Below, piece after piece: positions 3,496 to 8,154 of a stretch of 64,000 bases of DNA. Source of the stretch: Candidatus Buchananbacteria bacterium RIFCSPLOWO2_01_FULL_39_33 (GTDB lineage Bacteria; Patescibacteriota; Patescibacteriia; 2-01-FULL-39-33); NCBI GenBank assembly GCA_001817505.1, contig MHIM01000028.1:383-64382 (forward strand), in the 5' to 3' direction. The notes beneath the pieces are model-generated. The model saw nothing but the letters and a program-made list of their open reading frames with translations, did no database searches and was not told where the DNA came from. The first letter of the stretch is position 1; every line of letters starts with the position of its first letter. Both the position numbers and the translations under genes were made by a program.

Positions 3496-4002
3496 ATGAA
3501 AAAAAGCCCAACGATATTTCTTCAATTATTAATTGTGCTCATCGGCATCGGCACTCTGGCCCTCATGCTTTGGGAGCCTCATCTCGAAGGCAGGAACGCG
3601 CAGGCCACACTCTTTGAGATTTATTTCAAAGATCCGTTTCTGGCGTATGCGTATCTAGGGTCTATTCCGTTTTTTGTGGCGCTTTATCAGGCAATCAAGG
3701 TGCTGGGATATGTCGGACAAAATCAGGCATTTTCCCAAGCGGCCGTGAAAGCTCTGCGGACCATAAAATATTGCGCGCTCGCTACTGCGGGTTTTATTGT
3801 GGTGGCAGATGCTTACCTTATGATAGCTGCACGTAGCGGCAACGATGATCCTGCGGGAGCTATAATGCTGGGTCTTATAGCCACCTTCGCCTCTATCGTT
3901 ATCGCCGCCGCCACCGCGGTGTTTGGACAGATTTTGCAAAGTGGGGTGGACATAAAAAAAGAGAGCCCAACTTCAATTAATAATAATAAAACAGTCCCTT
4001 AA
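3496..4002 (+). CDS. Hypothetical membrane protein (DUF-type, 4 TM)
   Basis: ORF with hydrophobic segments; no catalytic motif. Confidence 0.5.
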   Translation: MKKSPTIFLQLLIVLIGIGTLALMLWEPHLEGRNAQATLFEIYFKDPFLAYAYLGSIPFFVALYQAIKVLGYVGQNQAFSQAAVKALRTIKYCALATAGFIVVADAYLMIAARSGNDDPAGAIMLGLIATFASIVIAAATAVFGQILQSGVDIKKESPTSINNNKTVP

Positions 4003-4151
4003 TAGGGCTATTTTATTATGGCGGTGTTTGTTGGACAAAGTTCACCCGGAATGGTTTGAAACGCCTAAGCCAAAATCTGTTACTGGTAAGAATGCGGTGG
4101 ATTATTCAATCAAGTAATGCCCATAAGCTTGAATGGGGCTTTTGGTGATGA

Positions 4152-5123
4152 TTATTTCTTTCCTAATTCCCCGATAATGTAATCTATCCAATTTTGATAC
4201 CAATACCAAGTTTTCACAACCATAGTACCAAAACCCTTGCTCATATTTTTACCGTCATGTTTTCTCCAAAATTGAGTGTGTTGATACATTCCGAAATTCT
4301 TAAAACCTGCCTCCTTAACTTTTTGAATTACCAGCGTTGCGGTAAATTTTTGTTTTTCCGTTTCTTCTTTTATCCAGTATTCTTTTGAAATATTTTTTGC
4401 CAAATCGGATTTTGGATCAATAAATTCAATGACTCTATCCGCTTGTCCTTTACGTTTTGCTAAAACTTTTGCGAACAAAAGACGATAGGCAAACCTATCA
4501 CTTTTTGCTTCGTTTTCGGACAACTTACTATCAAAATCGGCAACATAAGAAATAACATTTTGAGGAATAAAACCTTCTTTATCTTTAATAACTTTTGATT
4601 GTGAATGGTCTAGTTCGGAGAATTGTAAACTCAACGCCAAATTGTTATCAAGACCATATTTTTCTCCGTGCAGTTTTTTGAGATAGAAGTTCAAGTTCAA
4701 TGCACATGCTTGATAACGAGCAGACAAATAAGAATCTAACCCACTGGCTTTCCGGTGCTCAATCTGGTTACGCAACCCAATTAAAAAGTTTAAGTTGTTC
4801 ACGGTGTCCCTATCGAGTGGACAGTCAGATTTTGAGATACACTCTCTCAAATCCCAATATTTAATACTCCCGTCAGGATTTTTAACATATTTTTTACGAC
4901 TACCGCTTTTTGTAAAATATCGATAATCTACCCCTTTTTCTCTATAGTGGGCGTGCAGAAGATATGTCCAAGCAATAAGTGAGAGCACAATAAAGCTCTC
5001 GGTTTTAAAGTAAATGAGTGGATTGTTATAAATTTGAACAGCCGAAAGCATGGCCTCGCGGGCTTTCATTATTAAATCAACTTTTTCAGAGTAAATAGTT
5101 CTGGTCATAGTTCTTGTGGACAA
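4152..5123 (-). CDS. Hypothetical protein with a HEPN-like Rx4-6H motif; possible Abi-family (AbiD/F, Abi_2-like) abortive-infection protein.
   Basis: Contains LIGLRNQIEHRK (R-N-x-x-x-H), resembling the RNxxAH signature of Abi_2/HEPN proteins. The 323-aa size is in range. It is transcribed divergently from the R-M methyltransferase. The functional call is inference. Confidence 0.4.
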   Translation of the reverse strand: MSTRTMTRTIYSEKVDLIMKAREAMLSAVQIYNNPLIYFKTESFIVLSLIAWTYLLHAHYREKGVDYRYFTKSGSRKKYVKNPDGSIKYWDLRECISKSDCPLDRDTVNNLNFLIGLRNQIEHRKASGLDSYLSARYQACALNLNFYLKKLHGEKYGLDNNLALSLQFSELDHSQSKVIKDKEGFIPQNVISYVADFDSKLSENEAKSDRFAYRLLFAKVLAKRKGQADRVIEFIDPKSDLAKNISKEYWIKEETEKQKFTATLVIQKVKEAGFKNFGMYQHTQFWRKHDGKNMSKGFGTMVVKTWYWYQNWIDYIIGELGKK

Positions 5124-5165
5124 ATCCCACTTCTTTTTATATAGGTATCATACTATAATATACAT

Positions 5166-6263
5166 ATGGCAAGCAACCAAATCTTCAAAGCAGTCTATTT
5201 TTCTGACTACAAGGAAACAAACCCAAAAGCAAAGGGTGTTGTCTTGGCTTTTGGTGAGAGAAATATAGATTTATACAAAAGCGTAGCCGGTCTTGGGAGT
5301 AATGAATTACGCAACTTACTCGGAACTGACTCCTATCTTGAGCTAGAGCAACGCGCGCAACAAGAGGGTTTGCCGGTAAACACTTACTGCCTTTGGTATT
5401 TGCGAAAAAATCTCGGCGCGGAAGAAGTAAAACCGAAAAAGGCAAAGATTAGCGAAAGGGCAATCTCTCACTTTATAAATCAGGTCATTAAGGGAGACTG
5501 TTTGGAAGTGATGAGAGAAATTCCAGCAAAATCGATAGATATGATTTTGTGTGATCTACCTTATGGCACTACACAAAATCACTGGGACAGCGTTATCCCT
5601 ATTGATCAACTTTGGAGCCACTACGAACGTATTATAAAAGACAAGGGCGTTATAGCCCTCACAGGGCAAGGGCTCTTTACGGCGAATCTCATGCTATCTA
5701 ATCCAAGACTGTTTAAATACAAAATCACCTGGGTTAAATCAAAACCAACTAATTTTTTGAATGCCAAAAAGCAACCACTTCGCAAGCATGAAGATATTTG
5801 TATTTTTTATAAAAGCCAGCCCGCCTATAACCCACAGATGACCTACGGCGAACCCTACAACAAAGGTTTCAGGAAAGATCAATTTACTGGGAGTTATGGC
5901 GACTTCAAAACCGTTGAGGTAAAAAGCAATGGCGAGAGGTATCCTACTGATGTTATCTATTTCAAAACTGCCGAGAGCGAAGGCGAAGTTTATCATTCCA
6001 CACAAAAGCCAGTGGAACTTGGCCGTTATCTTATTTGTACCTTCACAAAAGAAGGAGATGTTGTCTTAGATAACACTTGCGGTAGCGGCAGTTTCCTTGT
6101 TTCGGCAGTTTTGGAGGGAAGGAAATTTATTGGAATTGAAAAAAACGAAGATGTTTATCTGTTCAAAAAACATAAAGTGGATTATATCGAAGTTTCCAAA
6201 AAGCGTATCGAAGAAGCCGAAGCTCAATACAAAGCAGAGAGCAACAAACTAAAGCTATTTTAG
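5166..6263 (+). CDS. DNA methyltransferase (amino-MTase, beta-class: motif IV before motif I; N6-adenine or N4-cytosine) with an extra N-terminal extension of about 100 aa.
   Basis: Motif IV appears as SIDMILCDLPYG (a D/S-PP-Y variant). Further downstream the HSTQKPVEL...DVVLDNTCGSGSF stretch matches motif I / AdoMet binding (FxGxG). This order is the beta-class arrangement seen in, for example, M.PvuII/M.RsrI-type enzymes. Confidence 0.85.
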   Translation: MASNQIFKAVYFSDYKETNPKAKGVVLAFGERNIDLYKSVAGLGSNELRNLLGTDSYLELEQRAQQEGLPVNTYCLWYLRKNLGAEEVKPKKAKISERAISHFINQVIKGDCLEVMREIPAKSIDMILCDLPYGTTQNHWDSVIPIDQLWSHYERIIKDKGVIALTGQGLFTANLMLSNPRLFKYKITWVKSKPTNFLNAKKQPLRKHEDICIFYKSQPAYNPQMTYGEPYNKGFRKDQFTGSYGDFKTVEVKSNGERYPTDVIYFKTAESEGEVYHSTQKPVELGRYLICTFTKEGDVVLDNTCGSGSFLVSAVLEGRKFIGIEKNEDVYLFKKHKVDYIEVSKKRIEEAEAQYKAESNKLKLF

Positions 6264-7177
6264 ATTCCGCTATACGGCTCCTCTTGGAGAATTTTTCGTG
6301 CTTTTTCAATCTCCCCGTCAGTTAATACACCCTTTTCTTTGAGCCAGTATAGCAGGTGAAAATACTGATTTGAGTGTAAAACTGGCTTCACAATTTTATT
6401 TATGCCAGTTTCCTTTTGAACAAAAGCAAGGTGTTTCTCGGAAAGCACGCCCCGACCAATAAGGTCGTAGGCAATTCTAATGGCATCAACCGAAGTGAGA
6501 TTTAGGTCGCCCTTGTGGTTTCTGTCTCGCTCGACGTCTGACTCATCAATACTTAATAAATCTTCAACGGTCTCCAATCCATTGAGATTGCGGTTATAAT
6601 ACTCTATTTCTTGCCCACGATAAGTGAACCATGTTCTTCCTTGTTCGGTAAGAGAACCGCGCGGCAAATAAACACCCTCATTAGATATTCGCTCCTTTGA
6701 TACCCAGCCACAGATATAAAGTATCCATTTTCTTTGTCTGGTCGTACCCGGAAGTTCTCTTTTGCTGGGAGTTTCGAGGTGAGTCATAACATAAATATCG
6801 GCATCCAGTCTTTCGTCATGCATCTGCCGCGCAAAAAAATTATGTTTTGCTTCTCTCGCAATACCATCACTACTTTCGTATTCCTCTTTGAATGGTAATG
6901 CGCCACCGCGGCACTTAACATCAACTTTTATCCCGGAGGGAAGTAGAAGATCGTACCCGAGAGGATGATCTTCGGGATTTATTTCCGGCATACCCAGCTT
7001 ATTTCGTATAACCATCTCCGCAAGTGCGCCGAACCCTTGTTCCTCTGAACTGCCTCGTTCTGCGCCGGTTCGATTTTGATTTGCGGTAATATATTCAGCC
7101 GCTTTTTGCCGCAATCGAAAACCAAGCTCATCGGTGAGCTTTATTACTATTGGTTTTGGATGCTTGTATTTATACAT
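6260..7177 (-). CDS. Putative Type II restriction endonuclease cognate to the adjacent methyltransferase
   Basis: Convergent with the MTase and overlapping it by 4 bp at the 3' ends. Contains a candidate PD-(D/E)xK motif (GYDLLLPSGIKVDVKCR). The call is inference; R-M enzymes have low sequence conservation. Confidence 0.5.
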   Translation of the reverse strand: MYKYKHPKPIVIKLTDELGFRLRQKAAEYITANQNRTGAERGSSEEQGFGALAEMVIRNKLGMPEINPEDHPLGYDLLLPSGIKVDVKCRGGALPFKEEYESSDGIAREAKHNFFARQMHDERLDADIYVMTHLETPSKRELPGTTRQRKWILYICGWVSKERISNEGVYLPRGSLTEQGRTWFTYRGQEIEYYNRNLNGLETVEDLLSIDESDVERDRNHKGDLNLTSVDAIRIAYDLIGRGVLSEKHLAFVQKETGINKIVKPVLHSNQYFHLLYWLKEKGVLTDGEIEKARKILQEEPYSGI

Positions 7178-7195
7178 GGTTCAAAGTTGGAAATC

Positions 7196-7272
7196 TGGCG
7201 GAGACGAAGGGATTTGAACCCTCGACCTCTTCCGTGACAGGGAAGCGCTCTAACCAGCTGAGCTACGTCTCC
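7196..7272 (-). tRNA. tRNA-Asp (anticodon GTC), CCA encoded
   Basis: Reverse complement reads GGAGACGUAGCUCAGCUGGUUAGAGCGCUUCCCUGUCACGGAAGAGGUCGAGGGUUCAAAUCCCUUCGUCUCCGCCA. Full cloverleaf; anticodon loop CUGUCAC. Confidence 0.9.
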
Positions 7273-7406
7273 ATTAATAACTGACAACTATTAACAATTG
7301 ACTCTTAATAATTTAGTAATTTTTTAAAAAATACTATTCAGTATTAAGTTGAATTTTATCACAGAAGCTCATTAAAGTCAATAGATTTTACCTAAAATAT
7401 AAAACC

Positions 7407-7435
7407 GCCTAAGTCGCGGTTTTAATATTTTTGGT
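7407..7435. terminator. Bidirectional hairpin terminator
   Basis: Hairpin aaccgcctaagtcgcggtt with A/T runs on both sides. Confidence 0.5.
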
Positions 7436-7451
7436 AAATTCTTTATCCTGT

Positions 7452-7478
7452 TAAGCCAAAAATCCTTTCAGGATTTTT
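7452..7478 (-). terminator. Perfect hairpin immediately 3' of rplT
   Basis: ccaaaaatcct-ttc-aggatttttgg is an 11-bp perfect inverted repeat directly after the rplT stop codon. Confidence 0.5.
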
Positions 7479-7492
7479 GCCAATTAATCGAC

Positions 7493-7846
7493 TTACTTAA
7501 CGGGGCTAATTTTCTCTATAATCTTGGCAAAAACTTTCGGTTCTTTTCTGGCTAATTCGGCTAAAACCTTCCTGTCCAAATCAATTTTAGCTTTCTTGAG
7601 TAAGTCAATAAACTTACTGTAAGAAAGACCATGCTGCCTGACGGCGGCGTTAAGCTGAATTTGCCAAAGGGCTCTCATAGTTCTTTTTTTAACTCTCCTG
7701 TCCCGGTAGGCATAGGCCCCGGCTTTAATGGTGGCGGTTTTGGCGATTTTAATCAGCCGCTTTCGGCCCCACTTAAAACCCTTGGCTCTTTTTAAAATAT
7801 TTCTTCGGTTTTTAGTATGGATTACACCTCTTTTTACTCTTGGCAT
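7493..7846 (-). CDS. rplT: 50S ribosomal protein L20
   Basis: MPRVKRGVIHTKNRRNILKRAKGF...AYRDRRVKKR is a canonical L20 sequence; 117 aa. Confidence 0.95.
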   Translation of the reverse strand: MPRVKRGVIHTKNRRNILKRAKGFKWGRKRLIKIAKTATIKAGAYAYRDRRVKKRTMRALWQIQLNAAVRQHGLSYSKFIDLLKKAKIDLDRKVLAELARKEPKVFAKIIEKISPVK

Positions 7847-7854
7847 ATAAAATT

Positions 7855-7956
7855 TAGTTATAAAGTTAATAAAGTATAAAGTTATAAAGTTGATTGAATT
7901 AAAATTTGTAAAGTTAATAAAAAACTTTTAACTTTATAAACTTTTAAACTTTTAAC
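7855..7956. repeat. AT-rich tandem and inverted repeats built from a TAAAGTT unit in the rpmI-rplT intergenic region
   Basis: ttataaagttaataaagtataaagttataaagtt faces aactttataaacttttaaacttttaactt. The same unit family recurs at 42841-42895. Confidence 0.6.
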
Positions 7957-8154
7957 TTAATTGTAGGGCATCAATCGCTTGATATTTTTCTGATCGGCCT
8001 TGGCGATTTGCTTATCTCGTCTTTTGTTTCTTTTGACTCGGCCGGATTCTCTGGCGTTGAAATGGTCTTGACCGCCGGTTCTCTTAAGAATCTTTCCTTT
8101 CTTAGTTATTTTGAATCTTTTGGCGATAGCTTGCTTGGTTTTCATTTTTGGCAT
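7957..8154 (-). CDS. rpmI: 50S ribosomal protein L35
   Basis: MPKMKTKQAIAKRFKITKKGKILKR; 65 aa, canonical L35. Confidence 0.95.
   Translation of the reverse strand: MPKMKTKQAIAKRFKITKKGKILKRTGGQDHFNARESGRVKRNKRRDKQIAKADQKNIKRLMPYN

Follow-up and report, generated by a model that had tools for sequence, protein, structure and literature searches.

The 64-kb stretch of DNA analysed here (the window) derives from an uncultured groundwater bacterium of the candidate phyla radiation (CPR)/Patescibacteria, Buchananbacteria-like, and its region from ca. 4019 to 7203, adjoining a tRNA-Asp(GTC) gene, is probably a 3.2-kb integrated defence islet that has no recombinase of its own and consists of two independent modules. 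Module 1 (5115-7196) would be a compact Type II restriction-modification (R-M) cassette composed of the genes for a predicted DNA methyltransferase (MTase), open reading frame (ORF) 2, and a putative restriction endonuclease (REase), ORF3. Module 2 (4140-5112) would encode a HEPN protein with a DUF3644 domain, ORF1. A first interpretation made from the letters alone (the sequence-only reading) had placed three genes between a membrane-protein gene and tRNA-Asp(GTC), and all of these features are present (Table 1); beyond tRNA-Asp, the genes rplT-rpmI-infC-smpB follow. Since their homologues number hundreds to thousands, the three ORFs are real genes and not chance frames, and none of them was assigned to any housekeeping family. 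The stop codons of ORF2 and ORF3 overlap, sharing 4 bp (TTAG). The GC profile of the locus showed no sharp break, and tRNA-Asp was the sole match in an Rfam scan of 3800-7500. Loci compared with the window are denoted by L numbers.

Two separate blocks of DNA homology were detected by blastn. The block covering the R-M pair (5143-7177) was 75-79% identical to loci of Kuenenbacteria and Pacebacteria and ended exactly at the ATG of ORF3, and the block covering the HEPN gene (4140-5112) was 84% identical to a locus of Staskawiczbacteria. A DUF3644 gene was found in 0 of ca. 75 other loci carrying the ORF3-MTase cassette. Its orthologues were located divergently beside the MTase gene of three mutually unrelated convergent R-M cassettes, namely those of the window, L011-13 (a C, or controller, gene, RE_ScaI and MTase) and L250 (C gene, a 315-aa R candidate and a LexA-gamma-MTase), while other orthologues (L014, L016 and L251) lie in an island rich in nuclease genes, next to a tyrosine integrase gene or by themselves. 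The R-M pair and the HEPN gene are separate ORF-sized mobile modules that occur in many CPR lineages.

The islet is absent from the relatives of its host. In 80 of 80 related genomes, which were retrieved via rplT, none of the three islet genes was found within 10 kb of rplT/tRNA-Asp. The closest relative, L023 (rplT 86% identical), carries in succession rplT, tRNA-Asp, a 45-bp spacer containing a terminator, the DUF2975 gene and a gene for a 179-aa membrane protein, and is an empty site. The identical tRNA-Asp of L023, L024 and L027 is directly followed by a terminator, and the tRNA-Asp of the closest relatives has neither an encoded CCA nor the P' motif described below. Every contig with the identical flanking gene carries the islet. 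The presence/absence comparison suggested in the sequence-only reading thus spoke against a locus conserved in all relatives. The islet lies at the tRNA 3' end, as expected of a mobile tRNA-adjacent island; it contains no integrase and shows no long tRNA-derived repeat, its boundaries being short att-like half sites. In L023 (10474-10790), two partial tRNA-Asp-like copies lie upstream of the intact tRNA-Asp, and an identical GC-rich insert of 33 nt (TTCCGCCTCGGCTTCGCCTTAGGCGAGACGGGC) splits the D-arm of both; these copies may be remnants of past rearrangements at tRNA-Asp.

The boundaries of the islet emerged from cross-locus comparison alone. The tRNA-Asp 3' end, CTCCGCCA, is the integration point, and the two islet ends share a core of only 6-8 nt (CTCCGCCA / CACCGCCA). 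On the tRNA side, the candidate element-side arm of attL, P', doubles as the 18-nt 5' leader of ORF3 in the window. The same 19-nt P' was found after the CCGCCA end of tRNA-Asp or tRNA-Ser in L113, L114, L119, L167 and L189, after tRNA-Ser and ahead of HNH and WYL-NYN cargo in the cassette-free L037, and likewise after the tRNA-Ser end in L252. P' reproduces the tRNA T-arm (GGTTCRAA) in inverted orientation. The full P-P' sites, which are located between cassettes, are imperfect inverted repeats with CCGCC as their central core. On the far side, the P-arm of the window is identical at 21 of 27 positions to the arm directly before P' in L115/L139, a match that was found 0 times in five shuffled 1-Mb sequences, and the native flank past this arm resembles the tRNA-Asp 3' flank of L024 and L023. 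L108 (4311-4400), which belongs to the window's own population, carries the same islet with a different 70-nt P-like arm ending ...GCCAACCGC in place of tRNA-Asp and diverges from the window exactly at the P' boundary; the junction is thus polymorphic precisely where the crossover is predicted. A generic repeat search and an 18-mer search with the tRNA end (3 mismatches) detected no att duplication and no long direct repeat, a short att core with degenerate arms being missed by the generic search. Viral contigs did not contain the excision-circle junction predicted for the islet, ...CAACAAACACCGCC joined to AGATTTCCAAC. The GAAC...GTTC of the P arm was also considered as Gram-positive-type LexA (Cheo) boxes and discarded, its spacing being N3 and not N4.

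Large serine recombinases (Resolvase, Recombinase and Zn-ribbon domains) are encoded in several sister elements. In L111, such a gene lies between tRNA-Asp and a P-P' junction, before a 98%-identical ORF3; in L121/128, L187, L013 and L250 they adjoin the cassettes; and in L252, a 56-kb IMG/VR contig, one directly follows tRNA-Ser and P'. It is proposed that the islet sits at the tRNA-Asp 3' end between att-like half sites sharing the core CCGCC(A), and that the enzyme which integrated it would most likely be a large serine recombinase acting in trans and similar to those found beside the sister elements. The islet reads as an element without a recombinase, or as what is left of such an element.

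The association of the cassette with tRNA genes was evaluated in 45 dereplicated contexts upstream of ORF3 homologues, with a deliberately conservative background taken from the same contigs. A co-oriented tRNA ended within 100 nt upstream of ORF3 in 11 of the 45 contexts (24%) as compared to 3.3% in the background (binomial p = 1.6e-7), and one was present within 300 nt in 16 of the 45 as compared to 4.7% (binomial p = 7e-11). Opposite-orientation tRNAs numbered 0 within 100 nt and 1 within 300 nt. The tRNAs concerned are of at least ten identities. In L149, L151, L155, L175, L127, L146 and L182, only the last ~30-50 nt of a C gene (...DYFLK and stop) remain between tRNA and ORF3; such remnants at tRNA-proximal junctions imply repeated truncation of the controller gene.

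ORF3 showed no match in Pfam, NCBIfam, PADLOC or PHROGs and none to PDB sequences; Pfam and PDB profile searches with divergent family members were also negative, and tblastn against annotated plasmid and phage records returned nothing. About 520 homologues were found in a set of 5.8 billion proteins, the best 120 of which were 78-94% identical, came from many CPR lineages and were all annotated as 'hypothetical'. The family is narrow, since the exhaustive search gave 56 representatives at 50% clustering. Among members 22-54% identical, D76, D86, K88, N113 and Q118 are the sole invariant columns. The motif YDLL...VDVK, to which the sequence-only reading had drawn attention, is real, and its D76, D86 and K88 are invariant even at 22-35% identity. 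A first AlphaFold2 (AF2) model from a shallow alignment (78-94% identity) was poor (pLDDT 59) and was replaced by one from a diverse alignment (pLDDT 89.4, pTM 0.89). In the latter model, residues ~1-200 form an alpha/beta nuclease domain at the N-terminus and residues ~204-296 a helical domain at the C-terminus, and the modelled order of helix 44-60, strand ~77 and strand 84-92 would fit a D...(D/E)xK triad. In Foldseek searches with this model, BFVD yielded phage proteins of ~160-200 aa (E = 2.8e-10, target TM 0.75-0.81), several of them annotated as 'Restriction endonuclease', and ranks 1-8 from PDB were DpnI, HincII, NhoI and EcoRV, all REases and none significant.

The genomic linkage of ORF3 was strict. 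It is convergent with the MTase gene, with the same 4-bp overlap, in 70 of the 70 loci that have room on the contig. A clade ca. 35% identical to ORF3 is also paired with an N6_N4 MTase, but is co-directional with it behind a MazE/AbrB-like gene. An example of this arrangement is L019 (3549-6029), in which a 62-aa MazE/AbrB-like gene, a 430-aa N6_N4 MTase gene and the ORF3 homologue are co-directional and overlapping, and which adjoins a 1007-aa Eco57I-like gene. C proteins are regulators of R-M systems, and a C gene ahead of the R gene is the classic arrangement (PMC3874152). In sister cassettes, a 73-aa HTH_3 C gene (Pfam 5e-14) with repeat boxes upstream ends 1-4 nt before ORF3, and 18 of the 65 unique upstream contexts have such a gene directly adjoining ORF3. 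L134 has the same layout of a junction followed by convergent R and M genes, but its REase belongs to the MvaI/BcnI family. ORF3 is very probably a Type II restriction enzyme of an undescribed PD-(D/E)xK family, to judge from its sequence conservation and predicted fold, and it is the best candidate for the cognate endonuclease that had been presumed, as indicated by the invariant triad, the MTase linkage, the C gene and the model. The 315-aa R candidate of L250 was considered as a relative of ORF3 and proved unrelated. Nuclease-domain-only relatives of ~166 aa were found on marine phage-like contigs (L021/L022:5001-5501 and the 56 IMG/VR loci L194-L249), where they sit among ERF recombinase, GIY-YIG and orphan MTase genes and are not paired as R-M; the same fold may have a different role in phages.

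ORF2 matched N6_N4_Mtase in Pfam (7.8e-24, residues 124-329), MTase_II in PADLOC (8.6e-63) and, in PDB, CcrM, M.RsrI and M.MboIIA, all of which are beta-class enzymes. Motif IV (DLPY, ~130) precedes motif I (DNTCGSGS of the FxGxG type, ~300), and both are invariant. ORF2 is, thus, predicted to be a beta-class Type II DNA amino-methyltransferase (N6/N4). Its product is probably N6-methyladenine (m6A), the likelier product because the nearest solved relatives of ORF2 are N6-adenine enzymes. Residues 1 to ~103 form a domain conserved in all cassette copies, which had no Pfam match at E<=10 and no PDB profile match. Both the class assignment and the unusual N-terminal extension of ca. 100 aa had been read from the sequence, and both were substantiated. 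A ribbon-helix-helix (RHH)- or helix-turn-helix (HTH)-like regulator was suspected in this N-terminus from the segment ELEQRAQQEGLPVNTYCLWYLRK and could not be supported. In L010 and L173, the N-terminus is swapped for a complete LexA (DNA-binding domain and S24 peptidase) on the same catalytic core. LexA (LexA_DNA_bind and Peptidase_S24) was found N-terminally fused to the MTases of three unrelated R-M cassettes, namely the beta-class, window-type MTases of L010 (1382-2830, minus strand) and L173, the MTase partner of the MvaI/BcnI REase in L134 (1940-3841, minus strand) and the gamma-class N6_Mtase/Eco57I-type enzyme of L250 (3062-4894, minus strand). These fusions suggest that methylation in the R-M systems of CPR bacteria is under SOS/RecA-responsive control.

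The region upstream of the MTase gene reads TGTGGATAA...TATAAT. In the promoter block GGTATCATAYTATAATATAY, TATAAT is located at 5154-5159 and ends 6 nt ahead of the ATG, so that the MTase mRNA should have no leader or almost none. The exact 9-mer TTATCCACA, which equals the canonical DnaA-box consensus, occupies a constant position 41-42 nt from the MTase ATG in 40 of the 46 unique cassette flanks. It may serve in DnaA binding, as an operator or as a junction site. It marks the MTase-side end of the R-M cassette, homology being lost just past it. In L250, the intergenic region between the MTase and DUF3644 genes is bordered by two TTATCCACA copies in inverted orientation. TTATCCACA and P' were also compared as possible terminal direct repeats of the R-M cassette, and their similarity (GTCCA..AAG) was too weak.

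ORF1 matched DUF3644 (PF12358) in Pfam (2.1e-54, residues 17-200) and, over its full length, the PDC-S19 HMM PDLC04948 in PADLOC (5.3e-131, residues 6-318). Its 2281 homologues are mostly 318 aa long and are 70-96% identical even in Zixibacteria and Xanthobacteraceae; those on plasmids of cultured bacteria are annotated just as 'DUF3644 domain-containing protein'. The start of ORF1 was set to the ATG at 5108 because the homologues have 318 aa and DNA homology ends at 5112. The motif LRNQIEH noted earlier is real. In R113-N-Q-I-E-H118 (numbered from the ATG), R113 and H118 are invariant among 27 homologues, giving Rx4H. DUF3644 has been placed in the HEPN superfamily as the 'EC042_2821' family, which occurs in R-M operons (PMC3710099). 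These matches indicate that ORF1 is a predicted HEPN protein of the DUF3644/EC042_2821 family with its HEPN domain at the N-terminus. The initial suggestion of a HEPN protein of the AbiD/F kind was, thus, correct as to HEPN and wrong as to AbiD/F, no match to Abi_2 (PF07751) being found in Pfam at E<=1. AbiD/AbiF (Abi_2) and ORF1 share the HEPN superfamily, the Rx4-6H motif and an inferred abortive-infection logic, but belong to different HEPN families.

The C-terminal ~120 aa of ORF1 contain no cysteine and have no family assignment. Two characterised groups carry a related N-terminal domain. HEC-08 is a tested defence protein with a DUF3644 domain and an essential Rx4-6H histidine (bioRxiv 10.1101/2024.01.29.577857), and the Ishtar anti-plasmid proteins (ist1/ist2) combine a DUF3644 or DUF4145 HEPN domain with a C-terminal alpha/beta domain (bioRxiv 10.64898/2026.07.06.735840). 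With DUF3644/EC042_2821, PDC-S19, HEC-08 and Ishtar, ORF1 has in common an N-terminal DUF3644 HEPN domain with Rx4-6H, a single gene and a second, C-terminal domain, and its distribution is likewise patchy and associated with defence islands or R-M. HEC-08 has C-terminal zinc ribbons, whereas ORF1 shares only its N-terminal domain with it; since the C-terminal domain of ORF1 is cysteine-free, it is not the HEC-08 zinc ribbon. The architecture of ORF1 is compatible with that described for Ishtar (XZW63086.1 and MGQ1310977.1). We propose that ORF1 would be a stand-alone RNase effector switched on by invasion, and that its action could lead to abortive infection, to growth arrest or, as has been reported for Ishtar, to the clearing of plasmids.

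Several explanations compete with the reading of the locus as two modules carrying a cognate R-M pair. It is improbable that the three genes form one system in which the HEPN protein would serve the R-M pair as an accessory or back-up effector. The recurrence of DUF3644 divergently beside the MTase of the window, the ScaI-type cassette of L011-13 and the LexA-gamma-MTase cassette of L250 speaks for such a system, as do the known occurrence of this HEPN family in R-M operons and the presence, in both the window and L250, of a TTATCCACA-like 9-mer between the MTase and HEPN genes, 6 nt ahead of the HEPN ATG. The three-gene system was, however, rejected since DUF3644 is in none of the ca. 75 other ORF3-MTase loci; besides, some of its orthologues stand alone or have unrelated genes around them, no two of the partner R-M systems are related, the two modules fall into distinct blocks of DNA homology, and PADLOC treats PDC-S19 as a single-gene candidate. 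This last status, a candidate only, on which no paper was found, at the same time weakens the defence assignment of ORF1. It is very unlikely that ORF3 is a methylation-dependent (Type IIM/IV-like) nuclease, or an unrelated nuclease or DNA-binding protein travelling with an orphan or regulatory MTase, rather than the cognate REase. The methyl-dependent enzymes DpnI and NhoI are among its best PDB fold matches, and DpnI has the same two-domain layout of a nuclease and a C-terminal helical DNA-binding domain. ORF3 is without any family annotation, short homologues reside in phage replication modules without a paired MTase, and no solved PD-(D/E)xK structure was significantly like ORF3 (best Foldseek E 0.042). 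On the other hand, a methyl-dependent nuclease and an MTase of matching specificity would be lethal together, and a cognate REase is favoured by the strict MTase pairing, which holds in more than 70 loci and also in a second clade whose genes are ordered differently, by the conserved 4-bp convergent overlap and by the HTH C genes located directly before ORF3 in sister cassettes, such genes being a hallmark of the control of classical Type II R-M systems.

As for the position next to tRNA-Asp, it appears rather unlikely that the adjacency arose from selection, a promoterless REase gene requiring read-through, or from hotspot or illegitimate recombination, the likeness to P and P' being incidental leader sequence. 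No conserved promoter was found upstream of ORF3, seven contexts show a tRNA followed by a truncated C gene instead of P', and 26 of the 65 upstream contexts are of other kinds; because of these two groups of contexts, site-specific integration cannot explain all placements. Integration is further weakened by the shared att core of 5-6 nt and the degenerate arms, by the R-M-only cassettes, which end at TTATCCACA and not at a P-arm, and by the window itself, where no serine recombinase was found in the 64 kb and no integrase domain in the three islet genes. In favour of integration, P' also precedes unrelated cargo (the MvaI/BcnI R-M genes in L134 and the HNH gene in L037) and adjoins large serine recombinase genes at tRNA-Ser and tRNA-Asp (L252 and L111), the far-end P-arm of the window matches the L115/L139 arms beyond chance, L108 departs from the window exactly at the P' boundary, and the tRNA-Asp of the closest relatives is without P' and encoded CCA.

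Table 1. Coordinates of genes, signals and junctions at the islet.
Feature	Position	Strand	Description
DUF2975 membrane-protein gene	3496..4002	+	Pfam; flanks the islet
Candidate attR-like P-arm, GTGAACTTTGTCCAACAAACACCGCCA	4019..4045	-	Right-hand islet end; then AT-rich flank and DUF2975-gene terminator
ORF1	4152..5123	-	323 aa from TTG start; corrected to 4152..5108, 318 aa, ATG at 5108
TTGTCCACA	5115..5123	-	One-mismatch copy of the 9-mer TTATCCACA; 6 nt upstream of HEPN ATG
MTase promoter/operator block, GGTATCATACTATAATATAC	5144..5163	+	Invariant in three CPR lineages, about 45 contexts
ORF2	5166..6263	+	365 aa, predicted beta-class DNA methyltransferase
ORF3	6260..7177	-	305 aa, putative restriction endonuclease
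P' motif/leader, AGATTTCCAACTTTGAACC	7178..7196	-	Between tRNA CCA end and ORF3 ATG; candidate element-side attL arm
tRNA-Asp(GTC)	7196..7272	-	ARAGORN; Rfam 73 bits; co-oriented with ORF3
Best sigma-70-like promoter of the region	7353..7381	-	TTGACT-17-TAAAAT, extended TG; upstream of tRNA-Asp
Window tRNA side (attL-like, B-P')			Left, tRNA ...CTCCGCC; right, AGATTTCCAACTTTGAACC-ATG
Window far side (attR-like, P-B')			Left, GTGAACTTTGTCCAACAAACACCGCCA; right, TAATAAAATAG and terminator
Full P-P' junctions in L115, L116, L134 (twice) and L139			Left, ..TTCGAACTTTGTYYAAYACACACCGCC; right, AGATKNCCAASTTNGAACC
Empty site in relatives (B-B')			Left, ...CGTCTCCGC; right, AT-rich stretch and terminator
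Expected empty-site junction of the window			Left, ...CGTCTCCGCC; right, ATAATAAAATAG

The expression of ORF3 appears to depend on the tRNA gene. Only 18 nt without a terminator separate tRNA-Asp from ORF3, and no conserved sequence or promoter was found upstream of ORF3 homologues. Since a terminator is missing, the gap is 18 nt and the best promoter of the region lies upstream of the tRNA, we infer that tRNA-Asp and ORF3 are co-transcribed. ORF3 would be transcribed from the promoter upstream of tRNA-Asp, and processing of the tRNA 3' end would make the 5' end of its mRNA. In the proposed working of the cassette, ORF2, expressed from its own conserved promoter, would methylate the host copies of the target sequence, and ORF3 would cut unmethylated incoming DNA, its C-terminal helical domain probably reading the DNA. 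In sister cassettes, the upstream HTH C protein would control ORF3, and the window copy would have lost, or never had, the C gene.

The cassette resembles the C-controlled convergent Type II R-M systems of the PvuII, EcoRV and Esp1396I types (PMC3874152) in that a beta-class amino-MTase and a PD-(D/E)xK-type REase are predicted to form a two-gene mobile cassette, and its sister cassettes likewise have a C gene directly upstream of R and repeat boxes. It differs from them in three respects: the ORF3 sequence family is outside Pfam, NCBIfam, PADLOC, PHROGs and PDB; the MTase has the conserved ~100-aa N-terminal domain, LexA-swapped in some copies; and the window cassette has neither a C gene nor an R promoter, ORF3 following the tRNA after 18 nt. 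As for tRNA-targeting islands and large-serine-recombinase elements, the window islet is likewise located at a tRNA 3' end with att-like half sites and a short core common with the tRNA end, and its sister elements show tandem accretion (P-P' junctions) and a recombinase beside att. Unlike them, the window islet has no integrase, many tRNA species are used, apparently via the ...CCGCCA end and a T-arm-like inverted repeat, and the cargo is reduced to as few as two genes in an arrangement that is integron-array-like but without IntI or attC.

The system types concerned, Type II R-M and DUF3644 HEPN, are already known. What is new is the unclassified, CPR-centred REase family, the MTase N-terminal domain together with the variants in which LexA takes its place, the tRNA-fused R gene that has neither a C gene nor a promoter, and the evidence for recurrent placement at tRNA 3' ends via att-like sites tied to large serine recombinases. 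A broader scheme may tentatively be proposed. Minimal defence cassettes of CPR bacteria (R-M, HEPN, HNH and WYL-NYN) could be inserted by serine recombinases, acting in cis or in trans, at tRNA ends with ...CCGCCA via the T-arm-like P', and could accrete into integron-like P-P' arrays; in recombinase-less, C-less copies, the R gene would be a promoterless 3' extension of the tRNA transcript.

CPR bacteria are largely without CRISPR, and R-M and other innate defences are believed to protect them (PMC4742961). Their defence systems are mostly unannotated, and the ORF3 family was missed by every standard library searched, PADLOC included. The conservation of this family at 80-95% across distinct CPR lineages implies recent and frequent horizontal spread. 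It may also provide REBASE and biotechnology with a new specificity. The placement at tRNA ends, the att-like junctions and the serine recombinases suggest a simple route by which defence genes move and stack in tiny genomes, and may also point to a group of serine integrases whose attB sites lie at tRNA ends. The LexA-MTase fusions and the DnaA-box-like 9-mer hint at links of R-M control to the SOS response and replication.

Further elements recur around the cassettes. A GC-rich hairpin element (GGGCGG...AATTCCCCCCACACCCCCCTTCC...CCGCCC) was found beside P-arms (L011:2877-2946, L013:1820-1889 and 4714-4783, L141:1-58 and L250:~1700-1760) and also upstream of the C genes in L122/L137/L191; in L013, its inverted copies of ~130 nt flank the C-R-M-DUF3644 module beside a serine recombinase. 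A pair of genes for a WYL-domain protein and a NYN nuclease is a recurrent variable cargo (L002-L006:9066-10147 and L037:9915-10990), located near the cassette in Kuenenbacteria and after tRNA-Ser, P' and the HNH gene in L037. Elsewhere in the window, positions 30-929 encode a collagen-like protein (GxQGxQ repeats) with Laminin_G_3 at the window start, which is conserved within the same population, and the rpmI-rplT intergenic region (7846-7965) is packed with AT-rich 24-nt direct and inverted repeats (ATAAAGTTA units).

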